Below are positions 2,633 through 61,035 of a stretch of DNA of 64,000 bases, one piece after another (position 1 is the first letter of the stretch; the number at the start of each line of letters is the position of its first letter). The notes under the pieces were generated by a model that saw only the letters and a list, made by a program, of their open reading frames with translations, did not search any database and was not told the origin of the DNA. This stretch comes from a virus. Lineage: Duplodnaviria; Heunggongvirae; Uroviricota; Caudoviricetes. The DNA is taken from positions 27,302 to 91,301 of the IMG/VR virus record IMGVR_UViG_3300021387_000895; one strand, 5' to 3'. The position numbers were made by a program, and so were the translations under genes.

Positions 2633-2634
2633 GC

Positions 2635-5814: not shown

Positions 5815-5910
5815 CTGAATCCTGAAACCTGATAGCATTTGACTAATATGACGGGACCGTGGTATACTTGTACTGCGGTCTCGTCTTCTTATTCAAAATG
5901 GGAGGGTAGT

Positions 5911-24070: not shown

Positions 24071-24705
24071 TGATGGAAACTAAATTTAATTGGATTAATT
24101 GCGATTGGACAAGAGTAAAAAACCACTGTAGAACAACGGTAAATAAGAAGTTTACGGAGAAAGAGCCATCACTCGAATTCAAAAGAAAGCTTCTTATCTC
24201 AGAGCATTCACCGATAAGAATTATATTGTTTGACTGGTCATGGGAAGGAATGCCAAGCTGGGTATCCGTACACTTTGCAAGACATAAGTGGGAAAAGTTC
24301 ATTTCCACACAACGTGATGACCGCAAAGAGCATGAGATTTCCAGAGCCGATATGCCTCAGGGAACTCCTGTTGACTTCGATGGCTTCGCAAACATGCAAA
24401 ACATCATCGATAGCTGGCGTAAGAGGCTTTGCTTTCAAGCGAGTCCAGAGACCAGGGCGTATGCGGAGGATTTCAAGGTGATGCTGCATGAGGTGTTTCC
24501 GGAATTGGCAAATGTGCTTGTGCCAAATTGCATCTATCGTTGCGGATGTCCGGAAATGGAGATGTGTAAGCAGAGATATTTTGAACAATTTATGAAAATG
24601 TCTTATGGAAGAGTAGACCATTTAATTGACATTCAATATCGTTACGATGTTTATAACGAATGGTTCTATAAAATGCATCCGTTTAAGGAGGATTTGAATG
24701 CTTGA
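24067..24705 (+). CDS. possible divergent flavin-dependent thymidylate synthase (ThyX-like) or related nucleotide-modifying enzyme
   Basis: EHSPIRIILF and FARHKWEKFISTQR loosely resemble ThyX EHASFTF / RHRxxxxxxxSxRY; size 212 aa; sits in the nucleotide-metabolism block. Confidence 0.25.
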   Translation: MMMETKFNWINCDWTRVKNHCRTTVNKKFTEKEPSLEFKRKLLISEHSPIRIILFDWSWEGMPSWVSVHFARHKWEKFISTQRDDRKEHEISRADMPQGTPVDFDGFANMQNIIDSWRKRLCFQASPETRAYAEDFKVMLHEVFPELANVLVPNCIYRCGCPEMEMCKQRYFEQFMKMSYGRVDHLIDIQYRYDVYNEWFYKMHPFKEDLNA

Positions 24706-25227: not shown

Positions 25228-25229
25228 AA

Positions 25230-25655: not shown

Positions 25656-25670
25656 GGAGGATAAAAGAAA

Positions 25671-26228
25671 ATGATATTTGGTGATACAATGCTTAAGCGA
25701 CTTGTAGATATGCGATTTATAAGAAATACATATGAAGGCGCTATTAATCCAGCTTCGATTAATTTAAGACTTGGTGATACGTTTTCTGTAATCAGCACTA
25801 CTCAGCCATGCCTTAAGCTTGGTGAAGAAGTAGAGTATGAAAATGTAGTTCCTTATGATGGCTATGTTATAATTCATTCTGGTGATTTCATGCTTGCAAC
25901 TACAAAAGAATGGATTGAAGTCCCGAAGGATGCTGCGGCTTTTGTACAAGGTCGTTCTTCCATAGGCAGAGCTGGACTATCCATTCAGAATGCTGGCTTT
26001 GTCGACCCAGGATTTCCAGGTCACATTACTCTTGAACTTAAGAATGACGGACCAAGACCTATCGTATTATACCCTGGTTATCCGGTAGCTCAGCTCGTCT
26101 TCATGGAAGCGAAAGATGTATCGAAGCCATATGATGGAAAATATGTAGGCCAGGTCGATGCTACTGGAAGCAGAATGCATCTCGATGTATTAAAGCCTGG
26201 TAATCAGAAAGAGATTAATGCAGACTAG
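25671..26228 (+). CDS. dcd: dCTP deaminase (dCTP deaminase/dUTPase family)
   Basis: GRSSIGRAGL and VDPGFPGHITLELKN motifs; 185 aa. Confidence 0.75.
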   Translation: MIFGDTMLKRLVDMRFIRNTYEGAINPASINLRLGDTFSVISTTQPCLKLGEEVEYENVVPYDGYVIIHSGDFMLATTKEWIEVPKDAAAFVQGRSSIGRAGLSIQNAGFVDPGFPGHITLELKNDGPRPIVLYPGYPVAQLVFMEAKDVSKPYDGKYVGQVDATGSRMHLDVLKPGNQKEINAD

Positions 26229-26870: not shown

Positions 26871-26925
26871 ATGAATTAAGGAGGCTGTTATATTTAGCAG
26901 TCTCCTAATTTTTAGGAGATTAATA

Positions 26926-27162: not shown

Positions 27163-27367
27163 TCTTGTTTGCGATGTATGCGGACGAGAAATCAGGAGAA
27201 ACTATGAACATTATATTTTTCCTTTGAGGTTCTATCTTGTAGTGCCGTCGCAATACGTTTATATAAGGGAAAAAGACGGAAAGAAACCTCGTGACATGTG
27301 CTTAAAATGTTTTGAAGATTTCAAGAAATTTGTAAAGGAAAAGAGGGAGGAAGCACAAAATGAATAA
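27146..27367 (+). CDS. hypothetical zinc-ribbon protein (CDVCG...CLKCF)
   Basis: AAGGAGG RBS. Confidence 0.4.
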   Translation: MSRNNNLVCDVCGREIRRNYEHYIFPLRFYLVVPSQYVYIREKDGKKPRDMCLKCFEDFKKFVKEKREEAQNE

Positions 27368-28166
27368 CGAACAAACAAATCGACCTTCGGATTTTGTAGA
27401 ATGGCTTGGAAAAGATAATGTCATTGGTCAATCTATAATGGAGCGAAAGTATAGACGGCGTGGAGAAAGTTTTGATGAGTTCTTAAATCGAGTAAGCGGT
27501 GGAGACGAAGATCTTAAGGAACTCATTCTCGAAAAGAAATTCCTGCTTGGCGGTAGGACTATGGCGAATCGAGGACTCGATACTTCGGCGACATATTTTA
27601 ACTGCTATTCGATTGGGTTCGTTCCGGATGACTTTGGAGAGATCATGGATGTGGCTAAGAAGATCGGACTTACCTTCAAAGCTCAGGGAGGTCAGGGTCT
27701 TTCTTTAAGCAAGCTGAGACCTAAGGGAACACCCATTGGCAAGGATTATGCTTCCGATGGCATTATTCCTTTTATGAAACTTTATAACGAAGTAACTGCC
27801 GCTACAAGTCAGGGTGGGGCTCGTAAGGGAGCTTTAATAATGTCTCTAGATGCTCATCATAAGGAAGCTATGGACTTTATTAAGATAAAGTCAGAGCCAG
27901 GACTTATTGAAAAGGCTAATCTTTCGCTTGAGATTGATAATTCTTTTATGTCGGCTGCATGCAAAGAAGAGCCTCTATTCGAATTCCATGAATACTCAGG
28001 TCATAAAGTAGATTACAAGATCAATCCTAAAGATATTCTGCATGAAGTAGCAAAGGTGGCCTGGGATTGGGGTGAACCAGGAGTACTTTTTGTGGATAAA
28101 CTTCGCAACTATAATCTAATGCAATACGACGATGAGTATCAGATCGAAACAACGAATCCGTGCGGT
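27360..28166 (+). CDS. ribonucleotide reductase, exon 1 (class II NrdJ-like), ends NPCG
   Basis: N-terminal ...FDEFLNRVSGG... and NPCG active-site motif; reading frame hits a stop 2 codons later unless spliced. Confidence 0.7.
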
Positions 28167-28792
28167 CTCTGAATGATAAGTTGGCCCCACGTAAAACATC
28201 CCGAAAAATCGGTGAAAGCTAAACCAAAGAGCTTTGGCATGCTAATACCGAGTTTCTACTACATCACAGAGAAATGTAACGCATAGATAGTGAGCGCTAA
28301 GAGAGCAATAAACTATCCACGAGTTCGGGACTTTTGACACGTAAAAAAAGGAGAATCATGATAATTTATAAAGCAACGAATTTGATAAATGGGAAAGTAT
28401 ATATTGGTGCAACATCATTGAAACTTAATGCAAGAATCAAATACCATATAAAAGATGCTTATAGACCTGATAGACCTAAGGGACGTTTTCAAGAAGCGAT
28501 AATTAAATACGGAATCGATTCATTTGATTTCGAGCAAATTGAATGATGTTACAAATCATTATAAACCATTAACAGACTTTATAAATAGAAAATACGGAAT
28601 CTCTGATTTGAGAAGTTTATTCTTATGTCTAGATGTTAAAACCAAAAAAGAATTTGCTTTATCTTTAATTAAAATCGTGTCAGAAGAAAATATATGCTGA
28701 GCCGGTCTGAATCGACAGACGTATCGTTTTATAAACGTATGAGGGAAACCTCCGGAAATATAGGATAAAAAGCCTATATGATAACAACACTG
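28167..28792 (+). mobile_element. group I intron interrupting the RNR gene
   Basis: 5' exon ends in T, intron ends in G; splicing restores NPCG|EQPLPKHGACCLSSLNL; contains a homing-endonuclease ORF. Confidence 0.6.
28334..28546 (+). pseudogene. GIY-YIG homing endonuclease, truncated/decayed (70 aa)
   Basis: IYKATNLINGKVYIGAT GIY-YIG core; ORF stops right after the catalytic domain, no DNA-binding domain follows. Confidence 0.55.
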
Positions 28793-30253
28793 GAACAACC
28801 TTTACCGAAGCATGGTGCGTGCTGCTTATCTTCTCTTAATTTGTCAGAATTTGTTCGTTTCCCATACACAGAGAAAGCATTCTTCGCAAGTGGAGAGTTC
28901 GTTTTAGCTGTAGAGAAAGCGGTTAAGGCGCTTGATAAGTTAATTGATGAGAATTATAATCGGCATCCTTTAAAAGAACAACAAGAAATGAGTTTTAATT
29001 ATAGGAACATTGGCCTTGGTGTATTTGGTTATGGAACAATGCTCATGAAGCTTGGAATGCGATACGGTTCTGAGGAAGCTCTTAAGTTTACTGATGATAT
29101 TTTCGGTTTACTTTTTAGGGCAGCCGTTCTTGCCAGCAACGATCTCGCAAAAGAGTTCGGACCCTATCCTAAATACAAAGAGTGCGTCCTAGACAGTGAT
29201 ATTATTAAAGCTCATTTCAGACAAGACGAAATTGACGAACTGAAGCAATGCGGTCTTCGAAATTGCTCATTAATTTCGATTGCTCCAACCGGAACACTTG
29301 CGACATTGCTTGGCGAAACTAGTGGATGTGAACCAGAATTTGCTATGAAGTATACTCGTAGAACTGTTGGTATGACTGATGGTGATAACACTTACTATGA
29401 AGTCGATTGCAAGGCTGCAAAAGAGTATAAGGAAATTAATCATACCGATATTCTTCCTGATTATTTCGTCGCATCTGATGATATTCCTTGGATGGATCGA
29501 ATTCGCACTCAAGCGGTGATGCAAAAACATGTCGATACAGGTATTAGTTCTACAGTCAATCTGCCATATGAAACTAAAGTCGAAGAGATAGAAGACCTTT
29601 ATATTGAGGCGTGGAAACATGGTCTCAAGGGTATTACTGTTTTCCGAAAAGGATGCAAGCGAATGCCCATTCTTTCGATTGATAAGAAAGAAGGCGAGAT
29701 CAAAAAGATTGGTAAGATGAGAAAACTTACTACTGGTTGTGGATCTCTGCATCTATGTGCTATGTTCAATTCGGTTACGGGAGAGCTCATGGAGATATTC
29801 TTGAACAAGGGATCTTCCGGCGGATGCAATAACTTCATGATCGGTCTTAGTAGGCAGATCTCCCTTAATTGCCAGAACGGAGCAAAGATTGATGATATTC
29901 TTGATCAGCTTGCTTCATCTGGCGTGTGCCCATCTTATGCCGTAAGAACTGCAACAAAGCATGACACTTCTCCTGGTTCATCTTGTCCTGTTGCAGTAGG
30001 AAAGGCACTTAAGGAGATGTGGGAGGAGATGCAAAGTGAGCTTCGAACCGTGGCAAAAGATACTGCTAAAAACAATGATTCTCAAACCAGAACTAGTAAA
30101 ACAAAACACTATCAGGATTCCAAGAAAGATGGGGAAATCTCAAATGGAGTTGAAGCATATGATGGAAAGAAGTGTCCAGTTTGCGGAAAAGCAATCGACC
30201 ACATCGGAGGATGTGACCAATGTACCAACTGCGGATGGAGTAAATGCGAGTGA
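28793..30253 (+). CDS. ribonucleotide reductase, exon 2 (C-terminal zinc-ribbon CPVCG..CDQCTNCG)
   Basis: EQPLPKHGACCLSSLNL active-site loop and further RNR barrel motifs. Confidence 0.7.
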   Translation, partial: EQPLPKHGACCLSSLNLSEFVRFPYTEKAFFASGEFVLAVEKAVKALDKLIDENYNRHPLKEQQEMSFNYRNIGLGVFGYGTMLMKLGMRYGSEEALKFTDDIFGLLFRAAVLASNDLAKEFGPYPKYKECVLDSDIIKAHFRQDEIDELKQCGLRNCSLISIAPTGTLATLLGETSGCEPEFAMKYTRRTVGMTDGDNTYYEVDCKAAKEYKEINHTDILPDYFVASDDIPWMDRIRTQAVMQKHVDTGISSTVNLPYETKVEEIEDLYIEAWKHGLKGITVFRKGCKRMPILSIDKKEGEIKKIGKMRKLTTGCGSLHLCAMFNSVTGELMEIFLNKGSSGGCNNFMIGLSRQISLNCQNGAKIDDILDQLASSGVCPSYAVRTATKHDTSPGSSCPVAVGKALKEMWEEMQSELRTVAKDTAKNNDSQTRTSKTKHYQDSKKDGEISNGVEAYDGKKCPVCGKAIDHIGGCDQCTNCGWSKCE

Positions 30254-30748: not shown

Positions 30749-31519
30749 ATGAATGCTAAATTTGTAGTCAAAACTTTGTGGAGTTGGTGTAAACGTCATT
30801 CAACAAGGTTGTTGGCTGGAGGAGCTATTTTAGCAGAAGCATGGGGTTTTTACTTTATGCATAGAGAAGCTCCAGTTGTTAAGGAACGACTAGATAATCT
30901 CGATCCTGATGCAAAATGGTATGAAAAGGTCAAGACAAGTGTACCCGTATATTTACCAGCAATCGGTATGTTTATCGTGTCATCGGCATGTATTGTCGGA
31001 GGCTGTATTGCAGGGGAAGCCAAGACGGCAATGATGGCAGGATTATATTCCGCATCAGCAGCAGAACTTCAAAAGTATAAAGACAAGATGATCGAAACTG
31101 TAGGTGAAGACAAAGCTCAAGAAATCCATAATGATATTGCAAGAGATCTTGAAAAGAAATCTCCGTCTTCATTTGACGAATCGATGATTGAGTATACGAA
31201 TCATGGAGGTCAATTGTTCTATGATCCGAATACGGCAAGGTTCTTTACTTCGACTGAGAGTTATATTTTGAAGTGTGTTGAGAAGATTAACAGCAAGATT
31301 TATGGTGTAGACATGTGGGTAAGTGTTAACGAGTTTTACGATGAACTTGGGATTACTCACGCTAAGTTGGCCGATCCATTTGGTTGGAATATAGACCATA
31401 AATTGGATGTATCTTTCGCACCTGCCAAGACTGATGATGGAAGATATTATGGAGTTCTTGTCTATTTCAACGAGCCGAGACTCTATAATGGAGAACTTCC
31501 GAAAAATATTAACGATTAA
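30749..31519 (+). CDS. membrane protein, paralog family member A (2 TM + conserved C-domain)
   Basis: C-terminal ARFF..NEFYDELGI..GW block shared with the 32500, 35264 and 36896 products. Confidence 0.5.
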   Translation: MNAKFVVKTLWSWCKRHSTRLLAGGAILAEAWGFYFMHREAPVVKERLDNLDPDAKWYEKVKTSVPVYLPAIGMFIVSSACIVGGCIAGEAKTAMMAGLYSASAAELQKYKDKMIETVGEDKAQEIHNDIARDLEKKSPSSFDESMIEYTNHGGQLFYDPNTARFFTSTESYILKCVEKINSKIYGVDMWVSVNEFYDELGITHAKLADPFGWNIDHKLDVSFAPAKTDDGRYYGVLVYFNEPRLYNGELPKNIND

Positions 31520-31573: not shown

Positions 31574-32485
31574 ATGAAGAAGATAATCATTTCTGTTCTT
31601 TTGGCAATCTTTGTGTCTTTGCTTGTAATCGATCTCCTTAATCCTACTTATGGATTCTTTGCGAAAGTGGACGCAGGCTATGCAGGGGTAGTAGATTACT
31701 TCGGAGATGTTAAAGATACACCTCTCAAACCTGGTTTTCACGTTACAAGATATTTCGAGCATGTGCATCCTGTAAGTATTAGAACTCAAAAGACGACATA
31801 TATCATTGAGGCATTCTCGTCTGATATTCAGCAGGTAGTCATGACTGTATCGGTCAATGCAAACGTATCGGAGGAGAGCGCTGGTATTCTCTACAAAAGG
31901 GTTGGCATGCATTACCAGGACACCCTTATCGAGCCAAAGCTTCAAGAAAATGCCAAAGTCGTGGTAAGTAAGTATACAGCGGAAGCATTGATCGAGAATC
32001 GTGAAATCTTGTCCAGAGAGATTCTTGAAAAGATGCAGGATGACATCTCTCCTTATGGGATTAAGGTCACTGATGTTTCCATTGAAAATCTTGATTTCAC
32101 TGATGCTTTTGAAGCGGCTGTGGAAGCAAAGCAAGTAGCTACTCAGGAGAAGCAAAAGGCTAAGACACAGGAAGAACAGAAGACGATGGAAGCTCAGCAA
32201 GCAGCCGAACGAGAAAAGATCAAGGCTGAGACAGAGGCATCTGTTCGCAAGATTCAAGCAGATTCTGAAGCTTATGCGATCCAGGCAAAGGCAGAAGCTA
32301 ATGCTCAGGCAAATATGAAGATATCTGAAAGCCTCACCCAGGAGCTCATTGACTACACCAAAGCTCAGACATGGGACGGCAAGCTTCCGACGACTTATGT
32401 TGGCAATGATGGCTCAATTCCGATTATTCAGTCAACTCAAGAGCACCAGACTACAGATCCAATATTTGAAGAATTCTCTAAATAA
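31574..32485 (+). CDS. SPFH / band-7 (prohibitin-stomatin-HflK/C-like) membrane protein
   Basis: N-terminal TM helix, SPFH core (IRTQKTTYIIEAFSSD..., YGIKVTDVSIENLDF), EQ/A-rich coiled C-terminus. Confidence 0.7.
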   Translation: MKKIIISVLLAIFVSLLVIDLLNPTYGFFAKVDAGYAGVVDYFGDVKDTPLKPGFHVTRYFEHVHPVSIRTQKTTYIIEAFSSDIQQVVMTVSVNANVSEESAGILYKRVGMHYQDTLIEPKLQENAKVVVSKYTAEALIENREILSREILEKMQDDISPYGIKVTDVSIENLDFTDAFEAAVEAKQVATQEKQKAKTQEEQKTMEAQQAAEREKIKAETEASVRKIQADSEAYAIQAKAEANAQANMKISESLTQELIDYTKAQTWDGKLPTTYVGNDGSIPIIQSTQEHQTTDPIFEEFSK

Positions 32486-32499: not shown

Positions 32500-33204
32500 A
32501 TGGTCATCACAAAGAAAACCATAAGTCTTGCCTTAAGTCTTGTTTCGATACTCGGCGTAGGCATGACAAGTATTCTTTCGATCAAAGGTCACGAAAAGGC
32601 ATCTGCTGAAACTGATGAAAAAGCCAAGATAAAGCATTATATTCCTCCAATTGTAAGTGGAGTTGTCACAAGTGCATGTATTCTTGGGGCTTACGGAGCA
32701 TCAGCAAGTGAGATTGCAACTCTTACAGCGGCTTGCAGTTGTCTTACAGCTAATAAAAGTAAAATAGAACAAGTGATAAGTGATAAGTTGGGACCTGAAG
32801 AACTCAAAGATATTAAAAAGCAAGCACTTCCGGTAGTTCCAGTTCAAAGGACTGTAGAAGACACTGGATATGGAAGTCTGCTTTGCTTTGAAGAGTATTC
32901 TGCAAGATTTTTCTATTCTTCAATGGAAGCAGTAGAAGACGCAGAAAAGAAGTTGAGTTCTCGATATAGGAATGGTCATAGGATAAGTCTTAATGATTTT
33001 TATGATTACTTAGGCATACAGAGGACTACCTTTGGTAATAATTGGGGATGGGTTCCAGATCCAAGTACATTCAATCCAAGATATTACGACGATAATCCAC
33101 TATGCTTTGATGATCAGATTGTAGAAGATTCTATTACAAAGAAAGCGGTAAGACTTATCACTTTCTATAACTTCCCAACAAGTAATTGGATGTACGACGA
33201 ATAA
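32500..33204 (+). CDS. membrane protein, paralog family member B
   Basis: Two TM helices; ARFFYSS..NDFYDYLGI..NWGW. Confidence 0.5.
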   Translation: MVITKKTISLALSLVSILGVGMTSILSIKGHEKASAETDEKAKIKHYIPPIVSGVVTSACILGAYGASASEIATLTAACSCLTANKSKIEQVISDKLGPEELKDIKKQALPVVPVQRTVEDTGYGSLLCFEEYSARFFYSSMEAVEDAEKKLSSRYRNGHRISLNDFYDYLGIQRTTFGNNWGWVPDPSTFNPRYYDDNPLCFDDQIVEDSITKKAVRLITFYNFPTSNWMYDE

Positions 33205-36895: not shown

Positions 36896-37939
36896 ATGAA
36901 ATTCCCAATCAAGATCAAAATTCCACCTAAACTCACAAACTTCTACATCAAAGCAATGACAAAAGTGAAGCATAAGTCACCAGAGATTTGTCTTGGAATT
37001 GGAATCGTAACCGGGGTTGGTGCTGTCATTCTTGTCGGTATAAAGACCTGGAAGAATAAGGATTTGCTCATGGATGATGCAGCAGAAATTGTAAGACTTA
37101 CTGACTACGATCCGGAAAATGATAACGATCCTAATAATCCTCTTTTAACTGAAGAAGAACGAATCATTGATCTTAAGAAAGCTAAGAAAGAAATGCGGAT
37201 GGATATCGTAAAGACGTATTGGATTCCAGTTGTATTGACTATAAGCTCTATCAGCTTTACAATTGGTGGATATCGAATTCTTCGCAAAGAACTTGCCACG
37301 ATGACTGCTGCATACGCTCTGTTGCTCGATTCTTATAAGCGTTATATTCAGAATGATATTAATCGCAACGGCATCGAGAGTTATCAGGACAACATGCATG
37401 GCATCAAGATGGTTGACACAATTGATGAGGAAACCGGAGAAGTCGTACAAAAAGCCATTGTGCAAAGGGAACTCAATTGTTCACGATATGCTCGCTGGTT
37501 TGATGAGGGTAATTATGACAGTGCTATTTGTAAGTGGATTTGGCGTAATCCTAATTGGCATCACAACAAAATTGAGTGCGCTCGTCGTGTCAAGATGATT
37601 CAAAGTTCTCTTAATGACACCCTTCATATGCGTGGATGGATGAAGCTCAACGAAGCTTACATGGCTTTCGGACTTCCTTGCAGTGAGGAAGGTGAACATG
37701 TTGGTTGGGTCCTTGGCTCTGGCCATGATGACTTTATCGATGTTGCCGTGTTCCCCGATTTCCAGAACGGTCGTCATCAGCTTCCTATTAATAAGAAGTT
37801 CCTTGATGAGCGAGATCCACAGAACAATTGCTTGCTCGACTTCAACGTCGATGGCTGCATCGATTACATCTTCAAAGATATTCTCGAATACGACAATCGG
37901 AGCTATATCAGTTATGACAAGCGTAAGGCTCTACAGTGA
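36896..37939 (+). CDS. membrane protein, paralog family member D
   Basis: Two TM helices; LNEAYMAFGL...VGW. Confidence 0.45.
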   Translation: MKFPIKIKIPPKLTNFYIKAMTKVKHKSPEICLGIGIVTGVGAVILVGIKTWKNKDLLMDDAAEIVRLTDYDPENDNDPNNPLLTEEERIIDLKKAKKEMRMDIVKTYWIPVVLTISSISFTIGGYRILRKELATMTAAYALLLDSYKRYIQNDINRNGIESYQDNMHGIKMVDTIDEETGEVVQKAIVQRELNCSRYARWFDEGNYDSAICKWIWRNPNWHHNKIECARRVKMIQSSLNDTLHMRGWMKLNEAYMAFGLPCSEEGEHVGWVLGSGHDDFIDVAVFPDFQNGRHQLPINKKFLDERDPQNNCLLDFNVDGCIDYIFKDILEYDNRSYISYDKRKALQ

Positions 37940-42036: not shown

Positions 42037-42280
42037 CATTGAGAAGAAGCATGGGGTCATAGGCTATTATACAAGAATGGCTAAAGATGTTTTGGCGGAT
42101 TCTACTATTCTCTCAGATCATTATGTAAGAATAGGAAAAACAGAAGAAGAATATGGACGTGTCGATAATGCTGAGTGGTTATGTGAGATTCATATCAACT
42201 CTATTGAGCAAGCTCTTGATTATGCCGCGATTTTTCAAAAGATTGCTAATAGAATGAGAGAAGAAAAAGGAGAACAATAA
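42023..42280 (+). CDS. hypothetical protein
   Basis: Overlapping start. Confidence 0.4.
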   Translation: MLKIDIEKKHGVIGYYTRMAKDVLADSTILSDHYVRIGKTEEEYGRVDNAEWLCEIHINSIEQALDYAAIFQKIANRMREEKGEQ

Positions 42281-43368
42281 TGGATAAGCAAGTCAAAGTA
42301 GTTATCGGAGCAAATTATGGGGACGAGTGTAAAGGTCTCGTCTCCTATTGCTTAGCTAAAGAGGCCAACGCACAAGGAAGAAAGATATTAACGGTTCTTT
42401 TTAATGGCGGCGCACAAAGAGCTCATACCGCTGATGGCAAGATATTCCACTGTACTGGAACCGGAGCTGCCGTTGGATCTGATACTTACTATGATCAGAA
42501 ATTCATGGTAGATCCGGTAGCTCTTTGGCTTGATAAGGCTAAGGTATACATCAATCCTTATTGCAGAGTTGTCCTTCCGTGTGATATAACGAATAATCAG
42601 CAAAGAGAACTTCGTTTAAGAAATAGCAGCTCTGGACATGGAACCTGTGGAATGGGGATATTTGAGGCATGTAAAAGGAGTAAGATCGAAAAGTATTGCG
42701 TATATGCTAAAGAGCTATTTATGGGATGGCGGCAACTCTATGATAAGCTCATAGAAATTGAAAAGGAGTATGGGTATCCTAGAGATCTTGTATACAACAA
42801 TGATAATTTCATGAGAGCTGTAAAGTATGTAACGGACAAGTGCTCTATTTGTGATCTCGATGAACTGAAATACAAATATGATACGATTATATTTGAAGGT
42901 GGTCAGGGTCTAATGCTCGACCAGGATAATACTGGTGACTTTCCTTATCTTACTCCATCTTCAACCGGTGTTCAAAACATTACTCAACGATTATTGGATC
43001 TCGAAGTTAATCCAGAATTATATTATGTGTCCAGATCATATTTAACAAGGCATGGTAAAGGTCCTTTGCCGAGGGAATGCGAAAAGAGTGATATTAATCC
43101 AGAAATCGTTGACGAAACAAATAAACCTAATCCATGGCAAGAAGAGATACGGTATGGATTTTTGGATAACGAAGCCATGCTTAAAAGGGTGTGGAAAAAT
43201 GCATGCCCGATAGGTGGCGCTAAGATAAATCTTGTCTACACTCATCTTAACTACACTAACGATAAACTTGCAGTGGGAAGAAACAGCTTTGAAACGATCA
43301 AGAAACCTAGCTTTGTGAATCATGTTTATGGTTCGGATAGTAAAGATGCTATGGGAGTGATATTGTAG
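42280..43368 (+). CDS. adenylosuccinate synthetase homolog, PurZ-like (candidate 2-aminoadenine/dZ-monophosphate synthetase)
   Basis: VVIGANYGDECKG (cf. PurA GDEGKGK), GGAQRAHT, IIFEGGQGLMLDQDNTGDFPYLTPSST, YLTRHGKGPLP align to PurA motifs; 362 aa, i.e. truncated relative to cellular PurA as phage PurZ is. Confidence 0.6.
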   Translation: MDKQVKVVIGANYGDECKGLVSYCLAKEANAQGRKILTVLFNGGAQRAHTADGKIFHCTGTGAAVGSDTYYDQKFMVDPVALWLDKAKVYINPYCRVVLPCDITNNQQRELRLRNSSSGHGTCGMGIFEACKRSKIEKYCVYAKELFMGWRQLYDKLIEIEKEYGYPRDLVYNNDNFMRAVKYVTDKCSICDLDELKYKYDTIIFEGGQGLMLDQDNTGDFPYLTPSSTGVQNITQRLLDLEVNPELYYVSRSYLTRHGKGPLPRECEKSDINPEIVDETNKPNPWQEEIRYGFLDNEAMLKRVWKNACPIGGAKINLVYTHLNYTNDKLAVGRNSFETIKKPSFVNHVYGSDSKDAMGVIL

Positions 43369-47785: not shown

Positions 47786-48448
47786 ATGAGTACCAATGAG
47801 ATATGTAAGTATCAAATTAAGGACATGTTCAAACCATATATGATCACCAAAAAGGAACAAAAAGAATTGGTTGACCGATATTTTAATGGAGAATACGGTC
47901 TTCGTGATAGAATTATTGCAAGCTATATACCTTTGGTGATCGGCGTAATTAACAAGAAATTCATGTATGTAGATGAGCGATACGCTGACGATTGCTTTTC
48001 TCTGGGATGTATAGGACTTGTAAAAGCTTTCGATACCTTTAAGAACGATAAAGGAGCAAGCTTTTCTACGTATGCCTATACTTGCATCTGGAATTCCATC
48101 GCGCACTTCTTTAGGAAGATCAAAAGGACTCCGATTACGGTGTCCCTTGATGCCCCTTTAGCTTCTGAAGATTGTAGCGAAGAACTATGCGTAAAAGATA
48201 TTATCGAGGATGATCACGAAGAATCTCAACCAGAAAATGTTTTATTTGATTCTTGTTTCATAAGCGAAGTCGAATCTAAACTCAATCTTCTTAAAGAAGT
48301 AGAACGTGAAGTAATTAAAATCAGATATTTCAATGAGAAATGCTATAACCAAGAAGAAACAGCCAGAATTTTGGAGATGTCACAAGCAGGAGTATCAAGA
48401 GCAGAAAAAAGAGGCATAACTAAGATTAAGGAGGCTTTGTTTTCATGA
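47786..48448 (+). CDS. phage-encoded sigma-70-family RNA polymerase sigma factor (group 3, SigF/SigG-like size)
   Basis: Region 2 (YIPLVIGVINKKF...DDCFSLGCIGLVKAFDTF...STYAYTCIWNSIAHFFRK) and region 4 HTH (REVIKIRYFNEKCYNQEETARILEMSQAGVSRAEKRG). Confidence 0.75.
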   Translation: MSTNEICKYQIKDMFKPYMITKKEQKELVDRYFNGEYGLRDRIIASYIPLVIGVINKKFMYVDERYADDCFSLGCIGLVKAFDTFKNDKGASFSTYAYTCIWNSIAHFFRKIKRTPITVSLDAPLASEDCSEELCVKDIIEDDHEESQPENVLFDSCFISEVESKLNLLKEVEREVIKIRYFNEKCYNQEETARILEMSQAGVSRAEKRGITKIKEALFS

Positions 48449-52548: not shown

Positions 52549-52925
52549 AAACGCTGTTACGTTTTTTACGTTTTGTGACGTTTTTGTGACAAAAATTTTT
52601 GAAGAATTTGGAATTTTTCGAAGCAAATGATATACTTTTTCATTACATTTGGAAATTTTGTGACAAAAAAGTGTCACAATGTTACGTTTTTTGTGCAAAA
52701 CTGAAACCTGAAAACCCTTGATTTTATTGGGTTTGTGACGTTTGTTACGTTTTTTTGGCACTTTTTTAATTAGCTAAAGAAAAAAATTTTTTATAAAGTA
52801 ATAAAAAAGCCTAAATTTTTGTCACAAACGTAACAAGACCTATTTTTGCGAAGAAAAATGTGATGCTGAAAATGAGGTCAAAAATGGTGCTGAAAGAGTG
52901 ATATTTTTGAGGAGGAAACTGGCAA
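52549..52925. repeat. AT-rich iteron/palindrome-dense non-coding region (putative origin of replication or replicase control region)
   Basis: Multiple copies of GTTACGTTTTT, GTGACGTTT and TGTGACA / TGTCACA in direct and inverted orientation, including the palindrome TTGTGACAAAAAAGTGTCACAA; immediately upstream of the replicase gene. Confidence 0.55.
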
Positions 52926-55900
52926 ATGGACTTCTATAAAATCAGGGAAAGGAGTCGCAAAGGTGGGGTTGAAATTTACCCTGATTTTCGAGTCGATGAT
53001 CTCGAGGATCTCCTTGTTCGAGGCGGTAAGTTTTATGCGGTGTGGGATGACGACAAAGGTCTGTGGTCACAGAATCCATTAACAGCACGAAGGATAGTCG
53101 ATAAGGATCTTTGGGAGTATGCTGATAAATTCAGAGACAAGTTTCACTTTGATGGTCCGATCAATGTAATGACCATGGAATCGGATTCGAGTGGTTCATG
53201 GAATCGCTTCGTTGCATATTTGAAACGCTCTCCTGATTCCAATGTTCAGCTCGACAACAAGCTTACGTTTCTGAACAGTAAAGTGACGAAGAAGGACTAT
53301 ATTTCGAAGCGGCTTGACTATGCGCTTGAAGAGGGTGACTATTCAGCATGGGATAAAATTGTAGGGACTTTGTACGATGAGAAAGAGAGGGAAAAGATTG
53401 AATGGTCTATTGGTGCAATTATATCTGGAGACAGCAAGACCATTCAGAAGTTCTGTGTGTTCTATGGTGAACCCGGAACTGGTAAGGGAACTATTCTGGA
53501 AATCGTACAGAGATTGTTCAAAGGATATTTTACCGTATTTGATGCGAAAGCTCTTGCTTCTGCTTCCAATCAGTTCTCGACAGAGATGTTTGCTTCAAAT
53601 CCTTTGGTTGCTATGCAGACCGAGGGTGACCTTTCCAGAATCGAAGATAATACAAAGCTGAACGCGATCGTATCTCACGAGCCTATTGTGATAAATGAGA
53701 AGAACAAATCACAGTATATGGGAAAGGCGAATTGCTTCTTGATGCTGGCTACAAATACTCCTGTCAAGATAACCGATGCGAGAAGTGGTATCATTCGAAG
53801 GCTGATTGATATTAATCCGAGCGGAAGGACGATCCCTTCGAATGAGTATGAGGCACTCATGAGTCAGATTGATTTTCAGCTCGGGGGTATTGCATGGCAT
53901 TGCCTTCAGGTGTATCGAGAACTCGGCAAGAATTACTATAAGACTTACAAGCCTACACAGATGATTATGAAGACCGACGTCTTTTATAATTTTGTAGAGG
54001 CTAATCTTGAGACATTTGAAGGGCAGGATGGGATATCTCTCAAACAAGCTTATGCGATGTATAAGGATTACTGTGATGAGGCTCTTGTAGAATACAAGTT
54101 GCCTAGACATCGTTTCAGGGAGGAGCTTAGAGCTTATTATGATCGGTTTGATGAGGTAACGAGAGATCCTGATGGGAAGCAGATCAGGAGCTGGTTCTCG
54201 GGATTTAAGAAAGATAAATTTGAACCGCCCGTTTTAAAGAAAACTCAAAAACCATTGGCGATGGTTCTCGAGTGTACTGAAAGTCTACTGGATGATATTT
54301 TGGCTGATTGTAAGGCTCAGTATGCGAACGAGGATGAAAAGCCAAGTATTGCGTGGAGCAAGGTTGAGACGAGACTTAAGGATCTCGATACGACCAGGCT
54401 CCATTATATTTTGCCCAAGAATCCGGAATGGAAGTACAAGTTGATCATGATCGACTTTGATATTAAGAATGCCGATGGTGAAAAAGACATGCTTCTTAAT
54501 CTGGAAGCTGCAAGTAAATGGACAAAGACTTATGCTGAGTTTTCAAAAGGTGGCGGAGGAATACACCTGATATATTGGTACGACGGGGATATTGACAAGT
54601 TGTCTTCTGTGTATGCTCCAGGAATTGAAGTGAAAGTGTTTAGAGGCAATTCGTCAATGCGAAGGAGATTGTCGAAGTGCAATAACATTCCAATTGCCGT
54701 TCTGACTTCAGGACTTCCTATGAAGGAGGAAAAGATGATTGACGTAAAAGCTGTTAAATCTCAGAAGAAGCTGGTTGAAATTGTTAAGGACTGTTTGAAT
54801 AAAAAGCATCATGGAGCTACAAAGCCTGAGATTGATTTTTTAGTAAAGATATTGGATGATGCATACAACAGCGGATTGGTATATGACATAAGCGATTTGG
54901 AGCATGATATTCTCATGTTCGCTATCAATTCGAGTCATAACGCCCTTTATTGCAAGAATCAAGTCAAGAAGATGAAGTTCAAGTCTGATCAGCCGATCGA
55001 AGAGGTTTCTCAGAGAAAAGATCCTGTTACAGATGAACTTGTGTTCTTTGATATTGAGGTATTCCCCAATCTGTTGCTGGTGAATTGGAAAATTGCCGGA
55101 GATGGTAATCCTGTAATGAGAATGATAAATCCGTCTCCACAGGATATTGAGAATCTGTTTAAGTTTAAGCTGGTTGGATTCAATTGCAGAAAGTACGACA
55201 ATCATATTTTATACGGAAGATACCTTGGTCTCAGTGTTGAGGAATTATACGATCTGTCACAAAGGATAATTGTTGAACAGGCTCGTGATGCTTTTTATCC
55301 TGAAGCATACAACATCAGTTATACAGATGTTTATGATTTTTCAAGTAAAAAACAGAGCCTTAAGAAATTTGAGATCGAACTTGGCATTCATCATCAGGAG
55401 CTTGGTCTACCATGGGATAAACCTGTTCCGGAAGAGATGTGGAACCAGGTTGCAGAGTACTGTGACAACGATGTTATAGCGACTGAGGCTACTTTTAATG
55501 CCCGTAAAGCTGATTTCACAGCAAGACAAATTCTGGCGGCTGTTGCTGGTCTTACGGTCAATGATACTACAAATACACTTACAACAAGAATTATATTTGG
55601 TGGTGAACGTAAACCTCAGCATGAGTTTAACTATCGCGATATGGGGGATGAATCCGATGCCCATATGAGTACGGATGATATTTTAACCGATAAGCGATGG
55701 ACGGTATTTGACAGTAAAGGTCGTCCAATCTTTCCTGGATATCGGTATGAGTTTGGTAAATCGACTTACCGAGGGGAAGAAGTTGGTGAGGGAGGCTATG
55801 TGTATGCAGAGCCAGGAATACATTGCCATGTCGCTCTTCTTGATATTGCATCAATGCATCCATCATCCATTGTCGCTGAAGATCTGTTCGGACCTACATA

Positions 55901-57146
55901 CACTCAGCGGTTCCATGATATTCTGAATGCTCGAATTGCTATAAAGCATGGCGATTTTGATACAGCAAGGAAACTGCTGGATGGTAAATTGGCCCCGTTC
56001 CTCGATGATGAGAAAGCTGCAAAGGATCTTGCTCAGGCTCTGAAGATAGCTATCAATTCAGTTTACGGATTGACAAGCGCCAGGTTCGAGAATCCGTTCA
56101 GGGATAAGAGAAATAAGGATAATATTGTTGCAAAGCGTGGAGCTCTGTTTATGGTTAATCTTAAGCATGAAGTTCAGGCTCGCGGATTTACTGTTGCACA
56201 TATTAAGACTGACTCAATCAAGATACCCAATGCTACACCTGATATTATTCAGTTCGTTATGGAATACGGAAAGCTTTACGGATACAATTTCGAGCACGAA
56301 GCTACGTATGATCGTATGTGCCTTGTTAATGACGCAGTTTATATTGCAAGGTTTGCCACTTCTGAATGGTGTGAGAATGAGTATGGATATTCTCCAAAAG
56401 AGAATTATGAGGATGGCGGACAATGGACTGCTACCGGCGCTCAATTTCAGCAGCCATACGTGTTCAAGACTTTGTTCTCGGGCGATGAATTGATGTTTAG
56501 CGATTTCTGCGAGACAAAGAGCGTTACCGGAGGAGCTATCTATTTGGACATGAATGAATCGCTTCCTGATATTTCAGACACTGAGGCAACACTTGAGAAG
56601 GCTATGAAGAAAAGTGGCATCACATTGGATGATATTCTAAGATGTGAAGCCGATCCTTATGCGATTGAAGGTATGAATTCTGATCAAGGCAGCGTGATGC
56701 ACTATTTACTAGAGCTTAGAAAGGATATTTCAGCATGCCATGATTATCACTTTGTCGGAAGGGCTGGATTATTTACACCAATAAAGCCTGGAGCCGGAGG
56801 CGGTGTAATGTACCGAGAAAAGAACGGAAAGTATTACGCTGTCGGTGGAACAAAGGGCTATAGGTGGCTTGAAGCCGAGGTGGTGATGTCGCTTCACAAA
56901 GAGAATGATATTGACAAAAGGTATCATGAGGATCTTGCAAACGAGGCAATCAAAGCTATCTCTGAGTATGGAGATTTTGAAGCATTCGTTTCTTCTGAGC
57001 CTTATATTTCATATGATGATAGTAAACCTCCGTTTGATCTGGTTCCATGTGGAGATGGCAAATACAACACATGCATGGAATGTCCAGCCTGTAAAGGAGA
57101 TCAATGCCTTAATGGGTATAGCTTATCTACTTATGTGAATGGGTGA
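52926..57146 (+). CDS. fused replicase: P-loop NTPase + AEP primase-polymerase domain + family B DNA polymerase with 3'-5' exonuclease
   Basis: Walker A GEPGTGKGT (aa ~183); AEP motifs MIDFDIKNADGEKD and SKGGGGIHLIYWY; Exo I FFDIEVFPN, Exo II FNCRKYDNHIL, Exo III YCDNDV; Pol A LDIASMHPSSIVA, Pol B KIAINSVYG, Pol C HIKTDSI. Confidence 0.75.
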   Translation: MDFYKIRERSRKGGVEIYPDFRVDDLEDLLVRGGKFYAVWDDDKGLWSQNPLTARRIVDKDLWEYADKFRDKFHFDGPINVMTMESDSSGSWNRFVAYLKRSPDSNVQLDNKLTFLNSKVTKKDYISKRLDYALEEGDYSAWDKIVGTLYDEKEREKIEWSIGAIISGDSKTIQKFCVFYGEPGTGKGTILEIVQRLFKGYFTVFDAKALASASNQFSTEMFASNPLVAMQTEGDLSRIEDNTKLNAIVSHEPIVINEKNKSQYMGKANCFLMLATNTPVKITDARSGIIRRLIDINPSGRTIPSNEYEALMSQIDFQLGGIAWHCLQVYRELGKNYYKTYKPTQMIMKTDVFYNFVEANLETFEGQDGISLKQAYAMYKDYCDEALVEYKLPRHRFREELRAYYDRFDEVTRDPDGKQIRSWFSGFKKDKFEPPVLKKTQKPLAMVLECTESLLDDILADCKAQYANEDEKPSIAWSKVETRLKDLDTTRLHYILPKNPEWKYKLIMIDFDIKNADGEKDMLLNLEAASKWTKTYAEFSKGGGGIHLIYWYDGDIDKLSSVYAPGIEVKVFRGNSSMRRRLSKCNNIPIAVLTSGLPMKEEKMIDVKAVKSQKKLVEIVKDCLNKKHHGATKPEIDFLVKILDDAYNSGLVYDISDLEHDILMFAINSSHNALYCKNQVKKMKFKSDQPIEEVSQRKDPVTDELVFFDIEVFPNLLLVNWKIAGDGNPVMRMINPSPQDIENLFKFKLVGFNCRKYDNHILYGRYLGLSVEELYDLSQRIIVEQARDAFYPEAYNISYTDVYDFSSKKQSLKKFEIELGIHHQELGLPWDKPVPEEMWNQVAEYCDNDVIATEATFNARKADFTARQILAAVAGLTVNDTTNTLTTRIIFGGERKPQHEFNYRDMGDESDAHMSTDDILTDKRWTVFDSKGRPIFPGYRYEFGKSTYRGEEVGEGGYVYAEPGIHCHVALLDIASMHPSSIVAEDLFGPTYTQRFHDILNARIAIKHGDFDTARKLLDGKLAPFLDDEKAAKDLAQALKIAINSVYGLTSARFENPFRDKRNKDNIVAKRGALFMVNLKHEVQARGFTVAHIKTDSIKIPNATPDIIQFVMEYGKLYGYNFEHEATYDRMCLVNDAVYIARFATSEWCENEYGYSPKENYEDGGQWTATGAQFQQPYVFKTLFSGDELMFSDFCETKSVTGGAIYLDMNESLPDISDTEATLEKAMKKSGITLDDILRCEADPYAIEGMNSDQGSVMHYLLELRKDISACHDYHFVGRAGLFTPIKPGAGGGVMYREKNGKYYAVGGTKGYRWLEAEVVMSLHKENDIDKRYHEDLANEAIKAISEYGDFEAFVSSEPYISYDDSKPPFDLVPCGDGKYNTCMECPACKGDQCLNGYSLSTYVNG

Positions 57147-59355: not shown

Positions 59356-61035
59356 GTGATGGGCGATTTGCCAAAACAGGTATACGACTTCAGCAAGCCT
59401 CCTGCTTCTGGCTGGAGTAACGCTGAAAAGATTGGATATTTGCAAAGGCGCGTTATCATACACTCAATAATCTATTATATGTTTGGGACGAGTGTAATAA
59501 GTGACCAGAAGTTTGATAGTCTGGGTCGACAACTTGTAGATCTAATGAATTCGTCTACAAAGGAAGAATGCGAGCAGAGCCAATATTGGTATGCGATGAG
59601 TACTTTTGATGCGACAACAGGCTTTGATATTTTCAGTAAGCTTAATCCTGAGGATCAGCATTACCTTCTTGATCTTGCTATGCTAATCATGGATAAAGCT
59701 GGCGTTGAGTATCAGCCTCTTAAAGTGGATGGCAAAGGCACTGATATTAAAAAAGAGAAAGTTCTTAGTTTAATGCCGCATCAGCAGGAAGCCATTGATA
59801 AATTGAATTCGGGATCTATTCTATGCGGCGGAACCGGAACTGGGAAGTCGATAACCGCGATAGCTTTTTACTATACGAAGATTTGTAATGGTGTGATCTG
59901 GGAAGACGGGCATACCGGACCTATGCTTAATCCGAAGCCGCTTTATATTATTACAACGGCTCAGAAGAGGGACAAGAAGGAATGGGACAGCGATCTTGGA
60001 TATTTTGATCTGACCCAGGTAATCATTCTGGTCGACAGCTGGAATAACCTACACAAGTATACCGATGTGTCTGGTGCTTTCTTTATATTGGATGAACAGC
60101 GAATAAGTGGAAATGGACAGTGGGTTGATTCGTTCTATGAGATAGCCAAAAAGAATGAATGGATATTATTGTCCGCAACACCTGGAGACAGGTGGACCGA
60201 TTACATTCCAGTGTTTGTGGCCAATGGATTTTACAAGAATAAGACCGCATTCTATAGACGACATGTGATATTTGATCCGTATGTTACAAAGTTCCCAAAG
60301 ATAAAAGGGTATATGGAGAAGGGCTTTCTTGAGTTTTTAAGAAGGAAGATAACGGTGCTTATGACTTATGAGAAGAATACGATTCCACATTGGAATGATA
60401 TTCAAATGGATTACGATAAAGAACTCTACAGAAAAGTCACGGTCGATCGTTGGGATCCATGGAATGATATTCCGATCGAGAACATTTCAGGAGCCTGCTA
60501 TTTGATGCGAAAGGCTGTTGCGATGACGACGATTGATGGATATTCAAATCACAAGCCTTTCACATGTAATGCAAGAGCTTTGAAGCTCTATCAGTTATGC
60601 GCTGAGAAACATCAAAAGCTTATAGTTTTTTATAATTTTGACTATGAGCTTGAGGCGATAAAGGAAACGATAAGAATCTGCAATGAAGAGATTGATTTAT
60701 ATTCTGGCGAATGTAGTTTTACGGTTGCTGAATGGAATGGTCATAAGCATGAACCGGTTCCGGATACAAAGAGGTGGATGTACCTTGTTCAGTATGCGGC
60801 TGGATGCGAAGGATGGAATTGCGTAGAGACAAACGCGATTGCCTTCTTCAGTATGAGTTATTCATACAAGCAGATGACCCAGGCAGCTGGACGGATCGAT
60901 CGCTTAAATACATCTTACCGCGATTTATATTATTATGTGTTTCAATCTGATGCGCCTATCGACAAAGCAATTCGAAAAGCGCTTAAAGGTAAAAAGGATT
61001 TCAATGAGAGTATATTCTGGAGTAAGGAGATGTAG
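59356..61035 (+). CDS. superfamily-2 helicase (SNF2/DEAD-like)
   Basis: Motif I GGTGTGKS, II ILDEQR, III LLSATP, VI QAAGRIDR. Confidence 0.7.
   Translation: MMGDLPKQVYDFSKPPASGWSNAEKIGYLQRRVIIHSIIYYMFGTSVISDQKFDSLGRQLVDLMNSSTKEECEQSQYWYAMSTFDATTGFDIFSKLNPEDQHYLLDLAMLIMDKAGVEYQPLKVDGKGTDIKKEKVLSLMPHQQEAIDKLNSGSILCGGTGTGKSITAIAFYYTKICNGVIWEDGHTGPMLNPKPLYIITTAQKRDKKEWDSDLGYFDLTQVIILVDSWNNLHKYTDVSGAFFILDEQRISGNGQWVDSFYEIAKKNEWILLSATPGDRWTDYIPVFVANGFYKNKTAFYRRHVIFDPYVTKFPKIKGYMEKGFLEFLRRKITVLMTYEKNTIPHWNDIQMDYDKELYRKVTVDRWDPWNDIPIENISGACYLMRKAVAMTTIDGYSNHKPFTCNARALKLYQLCAEKHQKLIVFYNFDYELEAIKETIRICNEEIDLYSGECSFTVAEWNGHKHEPVPDTKRWMYLVQYAAGCEGWNCVETNAIAFFSMSYSYKQMTQAAGRIDRLNTSYRDLYYYVFQSDAPIDKAIRKALKGKKDFNESIFWSKEM

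Follow-up and report, generated by a model that had tools for sequence, protein, structure and literature searches.

Does the 1406-residue reading frame at this locus encode a helicase, a primase and a polymerase in a single chain, and what would such a protein do for the phage? We addressed this question within the window, the whole 64,000-nucleotide stretch of phage DNA that was analysed. A preliminary description had placed primase, Exo I-III and family B polymerase motifs, in that order and preceded by a Walker A NTPase, in one ORF. Profile searches and structure prediction, together with fold searches, located all of these elements, confirmed the domain order and identified the NTPase as a D5-type SF3 helicase; the N-terminal 700 residues belong to the families predicted there, not to unrelated ones. 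The ORF very probably encodes the phage's replicative enzyme, a 'four-in-one replicase' of the type of GP55 (ORF55, YP_001828703) from Lactococcus phage 1706 (Zhang et al., NAR 2025, PMC12205980), and no evidence contradicts this assignment.

Integrity and domain order of the reading frame

The ORF listing and translation show one uninterrupted frame, 1406 codons followed by a stop. An AGGAGG ribosome-binding site (52910-52915) lies 10 nt 5´ of the ATG, and the N-terminus, MDFYK, agrees with that of homologues including GP55. The profile phrog_4210 aligned colinearly over its full length, with aa 1-1363 corresponding to profile positions 1-1293 of 1304 (1883 bits, E = 0). AF2 models have mean pLDDT values of 87.8 and 88.2. 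The domains run from an N-terminal domain through a D5-type SF3 helicase, a winged-helix-like domain, a PriS-like AEP, an alpha-helical domain (aHD) and a family B exonuclease/polymerase to a Cys-rich tail:

52926..57146, plus strand: complete ORF, very probably a GP55-type helicase-primase-exonuclease-polymerase replicase (ORF listing and translation, phrog_4210, GP55 alignment)
52926..53327, plus strand: N-terminal domain, aa 1-134, beta-rich with a long helix (AF2, pLDDT about 90)
53328..54020, plus strand: SF3 (D5/P4-type) helicase core, aa 135-365 (Pfam, TIGR, PDB and Foldseek matches)
53466-53492, plus strand: Walker A, G181-EPGTGKGT-189, with Lys K187 (motif location)
54021..54215, plus strand: winged-helix-like domain, aa 366-430, a strand, two helices and two strands (AF2)
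54282..54725, plus strand: PriS-like AEP primase domain, aa 453-600 (motifs, weak profiles, GP55 alignment), with E568 as candidate motif III
54453-54461, plus strand: AEP motif I, D510-F-D512
54549-54566, plus strand: AEP motif II, GGGGIH, aa 542-547
54762..54980, plus strand: aHD, aa 613-685, four helices (AF2)
55023..55640, plus strand: family B 3´-5´ exonuclease subdomain, aa 700-905 (motifs, phrog_1252, AF2), with Exo I D709-I-E711, Exo II N753-CRKYD-758 and Exo III Y845-CDND-849
55641..57005, plus strand: family B polymerase subdomain, aa 906-1360 (motifs, Foldseek), with Pol A D973-IASMHPS, Pol B K1040-IAINSVYG (K1040..G1048) and Pol C K1094-TDS
57045..57116, plus strand: C-terminal Cys-rich module, aa 1374-1397 (Cys pattern)

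The N-terminal domain, a region that the GP55 paper counts within the helicase domain (PMC12205980), is 34% identical to GP55 and contains the conserved residues D2, F3, P19, F21, W40, W47, D59, D104 and D110. The helicase core matched Pfam DUF5906 (3.3e-14), the P4-family primase C-terminal domain TIGR01613 (3e-12) and the SaPI5 primase-helicase, PDB 7ola, both by sequence (6.9e-07) and by Foldseek (2.8e-13). K187, N277 and R291/R292 are invariant in the family alignment and provide the Walker A Lys, sensor and Arg finger of a GP55-type replicase. The winged-helix-like domain (AF2 strands 369-371, 405-413 and 419-427; helices 372-386 and 394-402) falls within the stretch aligned to D5-family primase-helicases. 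Members of that family bind origins via a C-terminal winged-helix domain (Kazlauskas et al. 2016), an analogy that suggests a putative DNA-binding role here. Identity to GP55 is only 23-34% across the helicase and winged-helix parts.

The AEP domain is closer to GP55 (48% identity), and D510/D512, G542-GGGIH547 and E568 are all invariant in the family alignment. Database profiles recognized it weakly: phrog_3022 'DNA primase' matched aa 504-558 (1e-4), Pfam gave sub-threshold matches only (of 16 family members, 8 matched Prim-Pol and 5 matched AEP-TOTE), and a sequence-profile search of the region against PDB found no significant match. In the adjoining aHD (AF2 helices 613-624, 632-649, 656-667 and 673-681), a domain required for priming in GP55 (PMC12205980), Y653 and F665 are shared by 42 of the 43 sequences. 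The preliminary description spoke of an AEP primase-polymerase. The AEP domain is borne out; the bifunctional part is not, because the AEP of GP55 is an RNA primase that uses no dNTPs. We also considered identity with the bifunctional PrimPols (NrS-1, pRN1 ORF904), since the replicase has their AEP catalytic core with motifs I-III. A Pfam search of the replicase detected none of the PriCT or HBD (helix-bundle) families; instead the aHD, which the GP55 authors consider not homologous to HBD (PMC12205980), adjoins the AEP. By analogy with GP55, whose AEP site makes RNA only, these features argue against a PrimPol.

The C-terminal half contains the family B exonuclease and polymerase of a GP55-type replicase. 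A DNA polymerase profile, phrog_1252, matched aa 692-1132 (1e-44), and the exonuclease subdomain was modelled by AF2 with pLDDT above 90. The best Foldseek matches of the polymerase part were the archaeal PolB enzymes 9N/KOD/Tgo, Pol alpha and E. coli Pol II (E 4e-15 to 1e-12, with 9N at 4e-15); E. coli Pol II was also matched weakly by sequence.

Separate genes encode these functions in most phages, and an assembly join or frameshift could in principle have fused a primase-helicase gene to a polymerase gene. We regard such an artefact as ruled out for practical purposes, because 252 phage records, mostly of cultured isolates, contain a homologue that is colinear over the full length (tblastn coverage 96-98%). 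The same architecture is found in at least 7981 metagenomic protein clusters from independent assemblies and in a purified, active recombinant protein, GP55. GC is even along the ORF (0.40-0.42), and conserved residues span the domain junctions. The public protein collection holds an identical protein, in a cluster drawn from 2 contigs, the longest of 94.5 kb. A different objection is that only the polymerase-exonuclease works, the helicase and/or AEP being degenerate and priming being left to host or other phage factors. DUF5906 is indeed the only Pfam family recognized, the AEP region has no significant PDB match by sequence profile, and a separate helicase gene lies downstream (59356..61035). 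We nevertheless think such degeneration very unlikely: K187, R291/R292, D510/D512, H547, E568, Y653 and F665 are kept across 41-43 family members, the equivalents of K187, D512, Y653 and F665 are needed for GP55 activity, and both folds are predicted at high confidence by AF2. Judged from the sequence, the motif set is far beyond chance, and all of its residues are among the 259 near-invariant positions across 43 family members.

Correspondence with GP55 and a model for replication

The assignment as a GP55-type replicase is supported by residues of known function. The two proteins are colinear, with 41% identity over 1243 aligned positions and a like order of SF3 helicase, PriS-like AEP, aHD and PolB exonuclease and polymerase, and all seven of the GP55 mutant residues named in PMC12205980 are conserved in the replicase. 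Mutation of GP55 K189 (K187 here) abolished helicase activity, D509 (D512) primer synthesis, Y655 and F667 (Y653 and F665) priming, D712/E714 (D709/E711) exonuclease activity and D949 (D973) polymerase activity (PMC12205980). The replicase is 89 aa longer, with insertions relative to GP55 at aa 910-935, 1149-1162 and 1216-1274, the last helical, all in the polymerase part.

By analogy with GP55, we suggest that the N-terminal D5-type SF3 helicase (aa 1-430) would unwind duplex DNA and aid strand displacement, and that the PriS-like AEP with the four-helix aHD (aa 453-685) would make short RNA primers, selecting template sites with loose specificity. Extension of these primers with dNTPs would fall to the family B polymerase (aa 700-1360), which would also proofread by its own 3´-5´ exonuclease. 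GP55 is a dimer, and its primase and polymerase are able to work in trans (PMC12205980), so that priming by one chain may be paired with extension by the other. For the replicase itself, the enzymatic activities, the preferred nucleotides and the oligomeric state are all predicted from GP55. The GP55 helicase runs on UTP/dTTP (PMC12205980); the replicase may not share this dependence, the CCAAC priming site or dimerization, because identity is moderate (41%, falling to 23-34% across the helicase and winged-helix regions).

The repeat array, the neighbouring genes and the Z-genome question

Two features of this clade go beyond the published description of GP55, which speaks of no origin and no metal-binding tail (PMC12205980). 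One is the C-terminal module, which reads P-C1375-GDGKYNT-C1383-ME-C1386-PA-C1389-KGDQ-C1394. This pattern of five Cys is what suggests a putative zinc-binding element; AF2 confidence here is low (pLDDT 50-62). Of the 120 clusters of homologues nearest to the replicase, 89 have at least four Cys within the last 70 aa, so that such a tail is common in the clade of the replicase, whereas a comparison of C-termini found none in GP55 or in the proteins of FP_oengus, Scap1 and Petito, the cultured phages checked. The other is a repeat array:

52549..52925, no strand assigned: AT-rich non-coding gap of 377 bp, 29% GC, with a TGTGAC/TGTTACG repeat array, directly 5´ of the replicase
52658-52679: palindrome TTGTGACAAAAAAGTGTCACAA in this gap

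TGTKAC sites at 52555-52835 account for 10 of the 45 in the window (about 0.2 expected), 14 GTNACA-type sites lie in the gap against 0.43 expected, and the gap is the most repeat-dense of 1274 segments of 300 bp. Promoter-like sites are present at 52608-52636 and 52819-52846. L004-L007, L009 and L010 likewise carry the repeat module 5´ of the replicase; in L008 it sits about 2 kb upstream of that gene, and L003 has it as a CTCGTCAC variant. In contrast, the gap 5´ of the gene is about 40 nt in phage 1706, and FP_oengus and Petito have nearly none. From its sequence, the array is a candidate origin or operator region, with or without a functional link to the replicase. It is conceivable, though we think it rather unlikely, that the replicase of this clade is 'five-in-one' and doubles as its own origin-recognition protein. 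Binding to the GTNACA iteron/palindrome array would be through the winged-helix domain and/or the putative zinc module with its five Cys, and the replicase would load and prime there, adjoining the AT-rich stretch just 5´ of the gene. The evidence for this is positional and comparative only, and Cys module and array do not co-vary; another protein could just as well bind the array as an operator/promoter region. The GP55 study left open how the replicase locates its start site, and the module and the array could help to show how such an enzyme finds the start on its own genome.

The genes 3´ of the replicase (DUF6378, a single-strand annealing/ssDNA-binding protein (SSAP), a helicase at 59356..61035 and an exonuclease) would complete a replication and recombination module. 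The order replicase, SSAP, helicase, exonuclease is common to the window, phage 1706, FP_oengus and six metagenomic relatives. No second DNA polymerase was found among ORFs of at least 290 aa in the window; other replication genes may sit outside it, because the contig is longer (up to 94.5 kb).

The preliminary description added that, if the genome uses Z, the protein would be a non-PolA Z-polymerase. Sequencing reads report Z as A. One gene of the window bears on the question:

42280..43368: adenylosuccinate-synthetase-like (PurA-like) ORF, 362 aa

On this account the genome would replace adenine with 2-aminoadenine, and the family B enzyme would be a Z-incorporating, non-PolA counterpart of DpoZ. 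The ORF does match phrog_1211, labelled '2-aminooxy adenylosuccinate synthetase', and its product is short, as is PurZ; a non-selective polymerase other than PolA can moreover serve a Z phage, as S-2L shows, provided that dATP is cleared from the pool. However, the product retains the catalytic Asp (GANYGDECKG aligned to GDEGKG of PurA), a residue that is Ser in 100% of 147 phage PurZ/PurZ0 (PMC12884076). It scores 24.6 bits against the NCBIfam PurZ cut-off of 300, compared with 53-59 bits for PurA models. Solved PurZ/PurZ0 structures are in PDB (6FM1, 7ODX, 7VF6; PMC12884076), yet a PDB search at E<=10 returned no PurZ, only cellular PurA-type adenylosuccinate synthetases and four unrelated chance matches. 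Among annotated phage genes, its closest relatives are the PurA-like ones of Vibrio, Rhizobium and Mycobacterium phages, and the search matched no Arthrobacter, Gordonia or cyanophage record. Among about 50 larger window ORFs scanned, none was one of the Z-pathway companions DatZ, MazZ, DUF550, DutZ or DmtZ; the only dUTPase-fold match was a dCTP-deaminase-like ORF (25671..26228), 16 kb from the PurA-like gene. We consider a Z genome highly improbable, and a PurA-like gene alone is no ground for flagging one.

Relation to known replicases

The preliminary description called the fusion rare, a view that does not hold. Kazlauskas et al. 2016 had already reported it from in silico work, and its biochemical characterization followed in 2025 with GP55 (PMC12205980); it has a full-length PHROG, 252 phage records and at least 7981 metagenomic clusters, and the family is very abundant in gut-phage metagenomes. 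Cultured members of phrog_4210 with the same full-length architecture include FP_oengus 'helicase/polymerase' (AUV56521.1) and the 'DNA primase/polymerase' proteins, as SEA-PHAGES annotation routinely calls them, of Arthrobacter, Gordonia, Streptomyces, Rhodococcus and Curtobacterium phages. Full-length identity is 45-51% to the FP_oengus, Arthrobacter, Gordonia and Streptomyces proteins, and we found no biochemical characterization of these members in the literature searched. We propose that the gene be named a GP55-type helicase-primase-polymerase replicase. The practical interest of the family lies in de novo, strand-displacing DNA synthesis by one polypeptide.

Primase-helicases of the D5/P4-alpha type (vaccinia D5, MPXV E5, ASFV C962R, SaPI5 Rep and NrS-1 polymerase) likewise carry an AEP in the same polypeptide. 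The replicase differs from them in its inverted order, with the helicase ahead of the AEP, whereas in 94% of fusions the primase comes first (Kazlauskas et al. 2016). It has the aHD instead of a PriCT/helix-bundle accessory, and a complete family B polymerase is added. The only other single-chain helicase-primase-polymerase fusion noted is Pas55 of Actinoplanes phage phiAsp2, which joins an SF3 helicase to a DnaG primase and PolA (Kazlauskas et al. 2016). Compared by its published description, Pas55 follows an analogous logic, but its primase is of the DnaG type and its polymerase belongs to family A, which makes it an independent, non-homologous solution.

Domain order and fold of the replicase

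The replicase is encoded by one open frame without interruption, with an AGGAGG ribosome-binding site 10 nt 5´ of the ATG, an even GC content along the whole gene, and an N-terminus (MDFYK) that it has in common with its homologues. The motifs of an archaeo-eukaryotic primase (AEP), an exonuclease, and a family B polymerase, preceded by a Walker A, had been claimed to occur in this order in a single ORF, and all were located as follows.

52926..57146, + strand: replicase ORF, 1406 codons and stop
G181..K187: Walker A
D510-F-D512 and GGGGIH542-547: AEP motifs
D709-I-E711: Exo I
N753..Y757-D758: Exo II
Y845..D849: Exo III
D973-IASMHPS: Pol A
K1040-IAINSVYG: Pol B
K1094-TDS: Pol C

Domain-by-domain profile searches and structure prediction bore out the claimed domains. 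DUF5906, the P-loop of D5/P4-type primase-helicases, was the sole Pfam family recognized (aa 179-284), and NCBIfam returned a P4-family primase C-terminal domain together with weak matches to E. coli Pol II. In PHROGs, phrog_4210 ('DNA polymerase') covers aa 1-1363 with 1883 bits, and partial matches cover aa 119-434 (the helicase halves of primase-helicases), aa 504-558 (a primase family), and aa 692-1132 (a PolB family). The structure was predicted as two halves from 41-sequence alignments, with mean pLDDT values of 87.8 (aa 1-700) and 88.2 (aa 681-1406). Foldseek matched the C-terminal model to the 9N, KOD, and Tgo polymerases, Pol alpha, and E. coli Pol II (E 4e-15 to 1e-12), and the predicted fold matches the classical primer-dependent family B type. 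For the N-terminal model, SF3 helicases filled the ranking, with no AEP entry within the top 50. Sequence profiles do not capture the AEP domain, which has diverged too far: a family profile gave no match to PDB sequences, and Pfam gave only sub-threshold matches, to Prim-Pol in 8 of 16 members and to AEP-TOTE in 5 of the 16.

Family membership, C-terminal tail, and upstream repeats

The relationship of the replicase to other phage proteins shows at the protein level only, as megablast of the gene against phage genomes gave no match. With tblastn, full-length homologues were found in 252 phage records at 45-51% identity; they include Faecalibacterium phage FP_oengus and many phages of Arthrobacter, Gordonia, Streptomyces, Rhodococcus, and Curtobacterium, for which the SEA-PHAGES label is 'DNA primase/polymerase'. 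The homologues in Lactococcus phages 1706 and P162 are at 35-38% identity. A metagenomic protein collection added at least 7981 clusters at E<=1e-10 (of 8000 candidates scored), among them a sequence identical to the replicase, whose cluster is found on two contigs, the longest of 94.5 kb. The preliminary description had called the fusion rare, a view that these numbers overturn. The fusion was recognized in silico as early as 2016 (Kazlauskas et al.). The replicase joins a known, recently characterized family, with 41% identity over 1243 aligned positions to GP55, the four-in-one replicase of phage 1706, and we assign it with high confidence as a GP55-type enzyme.

The C-terminus carries a Cys module, P-C1375-x7-C1383-x2-C1386-x2-C1389-x4-C1394, whose spacing suggests zinc binding; AF2 confidence is low over this region. 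Of the 120 homologue clusters closest to the replicase, 89 have at least four Cys among the last 70 residues, whereas GP55 and the replicases of the cultured phages FP_oengus, Scap1, and Petito lack the module. An apparent Scap1 match reaching aa 1399 was discarded as tblastn read-through of a stop codon; neither Scap1 nor Petito has the module.

An acidic C-terminal peptide closing in (D/E)LPF, IWPF, or F(D/A)VR is found in many proteins of the family, both in those that have the Cys module and in those that lack it (P0003, P0004, P0058, P0070, P0072, P0082, P0085, P0097, P0098, P0103, P0104, P0111, and others). These tails look like the C-terminal tip of bacterial SSB, which is DDDIPF. The replicase studied here ends in YSLSTYVNG, without an acidic tail.

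Immediately 5´ of the gene lies a repeat array.

52549-52925: non-coding gap, 377 bp, 29% GC, holding the array

Of the 45 TGTKAC sites in the window, 10 fall in the gap, where about 0.2 would be expected; the palindrome TTGTGACAAAAAAGTGTCACAA includes one of the 10. The gap tops the repeat density among 1274 windows of 300 bp. The array combines direct and inverted GTNACA/TGTNAC repeats with an TTGTGACAAAAAAGTGTCACA palindrome, a hairpin rich in GC, and ~60 bp of AT-rich sequence; the conserved module is GTNACA iterons, palindrome, AT-rich stretch, and inverted iterons. Arrays were found in related metagenomic contigs at the following positions; relative to the remaining sequence of each locus, the repeats are 10- to 60-fold enriched.

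L003: 9448-10000, an CTCGTCAC variant
L004: 9730-10000, immediately 5´ of the replicase
L005: 9737-10000, immediately 5´ of the replicase
L006: 9671-10000, immediately 5´ of the replicase
L007: 9617-10000, immediately 5´ of the replicase
L008: 3679-4114, ~2 kb upstream of the replicase
L009: 5355-5675, one small ORF upstream of the replicase
L010: 5678-6000, immediately 5´ of the replicase

Origin binding through a winged-helix domain is reported for D5-family members (Kazlauskas, 2016), and the array could be an origin to which the replicase binds through its own D5-type winged helix. It could equally be an operator or promoter region: promoter-like sites overlap the array, and the phage carries its own sigma factor. 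A pairing of the Cys module with the array was rejected: the two do not co-vary, since the replicases of L008-L010 are Cys-less yet the array is present. A likeness of the iteron core GTAAC/GTCAC to the GP55 priming sites CCAAC/CTAAC was set aside as too weak.

The PurA-like gene and other genes of the window

The preliminary description had added that, if the genome used Z, the replicase would be a non-PolA Z-polymerase. An adenylosuccinate-synthetase-like protein is indeed encoded in the window.

42280..43368: PurA-like ORF, 362 aa, short and divergent, matching phrog_1211 and PF00709

Its catalytic Asp and His are kept. The Asp lies in the GDEGKG loop (here GDECKG); in every one of the 147 phage PurZ/PurZ0 sequences analyzed in PMC12884076, a Ser takes its place, and this defining change is absent here; by the Asp-to-Ser diagnostic, the ORF is, on its sequence, PurA-like and not PurZ. 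With the NCBIfam PurZ model the score was 24.6 bits, where the cut-off is 300, and the PurA models, at 53-59 bits, were far under their cut-offs too. None of the solved PurZ (6FM1, 7ODX) or PurZ0 (7VF6) structures was matched in the PDB, even at E<=10. Among annotated genes, the PurA-like ones of large Vibrio, Rhizobium, and Mycobacterium phages are the closest, and the search matched nothing from Arthrobacter or Gordonia phages or from cyanophages. A scan of ~50 window ORFs gave no DatZ, MazZ, or DUF550, and the ORFs of at least 290 aa included no family A polymerase. Because the Asp is kept, the PurZ score is low, the closest annotated relatives are PurA-like, and companion genes are absent among the ORFs scanned, the premise of a Z-polymerase is unsupported. 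We reject the Z-genome reading, which we consider extremely improbable even when the unseen part of the contig is allowed for.

Other genes were noted across the window.

2629..3600: tail-spike-like protein
3809..4831: endolysin with SH3 domains
5839..6840: tyrosine integrase
7042-9570: three tRNA genes, two of them Ile-TAT and Leu-TAA, the third at 7042-7121
20753..22855: 700-aa ORF, phrog_1735, no Pfam match
24067..24705: ThyX-like fragment
25671..26228: dCTP-deaminase-like/dUTPase-fold protein
27360..28172 and 28778..30253: RNR large subunit, in two pieces
30749..31519, 32500..33204, and 36896..37939: DUF6353 paralogues
31574..32485: SPFH/Band-7 protein, among the paralogues
45957-46496 and 48445-49047: DUF5662 and DUF5758 proteins, upstream of the replicase
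47786..48448: phage-encoded sigma-70-family factor, with just regions 2 and 4

A temperate lifestyle is probable, given the tail-spike-like, endolysin, and integrase region (2629-6840). The third tRNA scored 50.7 bits as a tRNA with Rfam, and ARAGORN assigned it no normal anticodon ('tt' at position 34). Within the nucleotide-metabolism cluster (24067-30253), the break in the RNR gene coincides exactly with TNPCG|E, a conserved motif of the active site, and the insert of ~600 bp contains a short GIY-YIG-like ORF (28334..28546, IYKATNLINGKVYIGATS). The insert looks like a homing-endonuclease-bearing intron; an Rfam search of the split gene matched no group I or II model, with group I giving nothing at the gathering threshold or at E<=1. 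In each of the related contigs L003-L010, taken from an assembly collection, DUF6353 genes again adjoin the replication module, and in L003, DUF5662 and the sigma factor hold the same position upstream of the replicase.

Comparison with GP55

Purified GP55 has UTP/dTTP-dependent helicase activity, makes RNA primers with a PriS-like domain and a new alpha-helical domain (aHD), carries out strand displacement, dimerizes, and replicates ssM13 DNA de novo (Zhang et al., 2025, PMC12205980). All seven of its mutant residues (K189, D509, Y655, F667, D712/E714, and D949) are kept in the replicase (K187, D512, Y653, F665, D709/E711, and D973) and across 43 family members. The genes 3´ of the replicase encode, in order, DUF6378, a single-strand annealing/ssDNA-binding protein, a helicase, and an exonuclease, an order that recurs in phage 1706, FP_oengus, and six relatives from metagenomes. 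What the analysis itself shows is the synteny, the motifs, and the predicted folds of the replicase.

By homology to GP55, the N-terminal SF3 helicase would unwind DNA, the AEP domain and aHD would make short RNA primers, and the C-terminal family B polymerase would extend and proofread them. The enzyme probably acts as a dimer, so that one step, priming or extension, may take place in trans to the other. The preliminary description was right about the domains, if imprecise in the term 'primase-polymerase'. We infer activities, nucleotide preferences, and oligomeric state by homology; UTP/dTTP dependence and other properties may differ, since the helicase and winged-helix parts share just 23-34% identity with GP55. 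Beyond what has been published on GP55-type enzymes, there are just two leads, both of modest novelty: the Cys-rich C-terminus and the repeat array conserved beside the gene.
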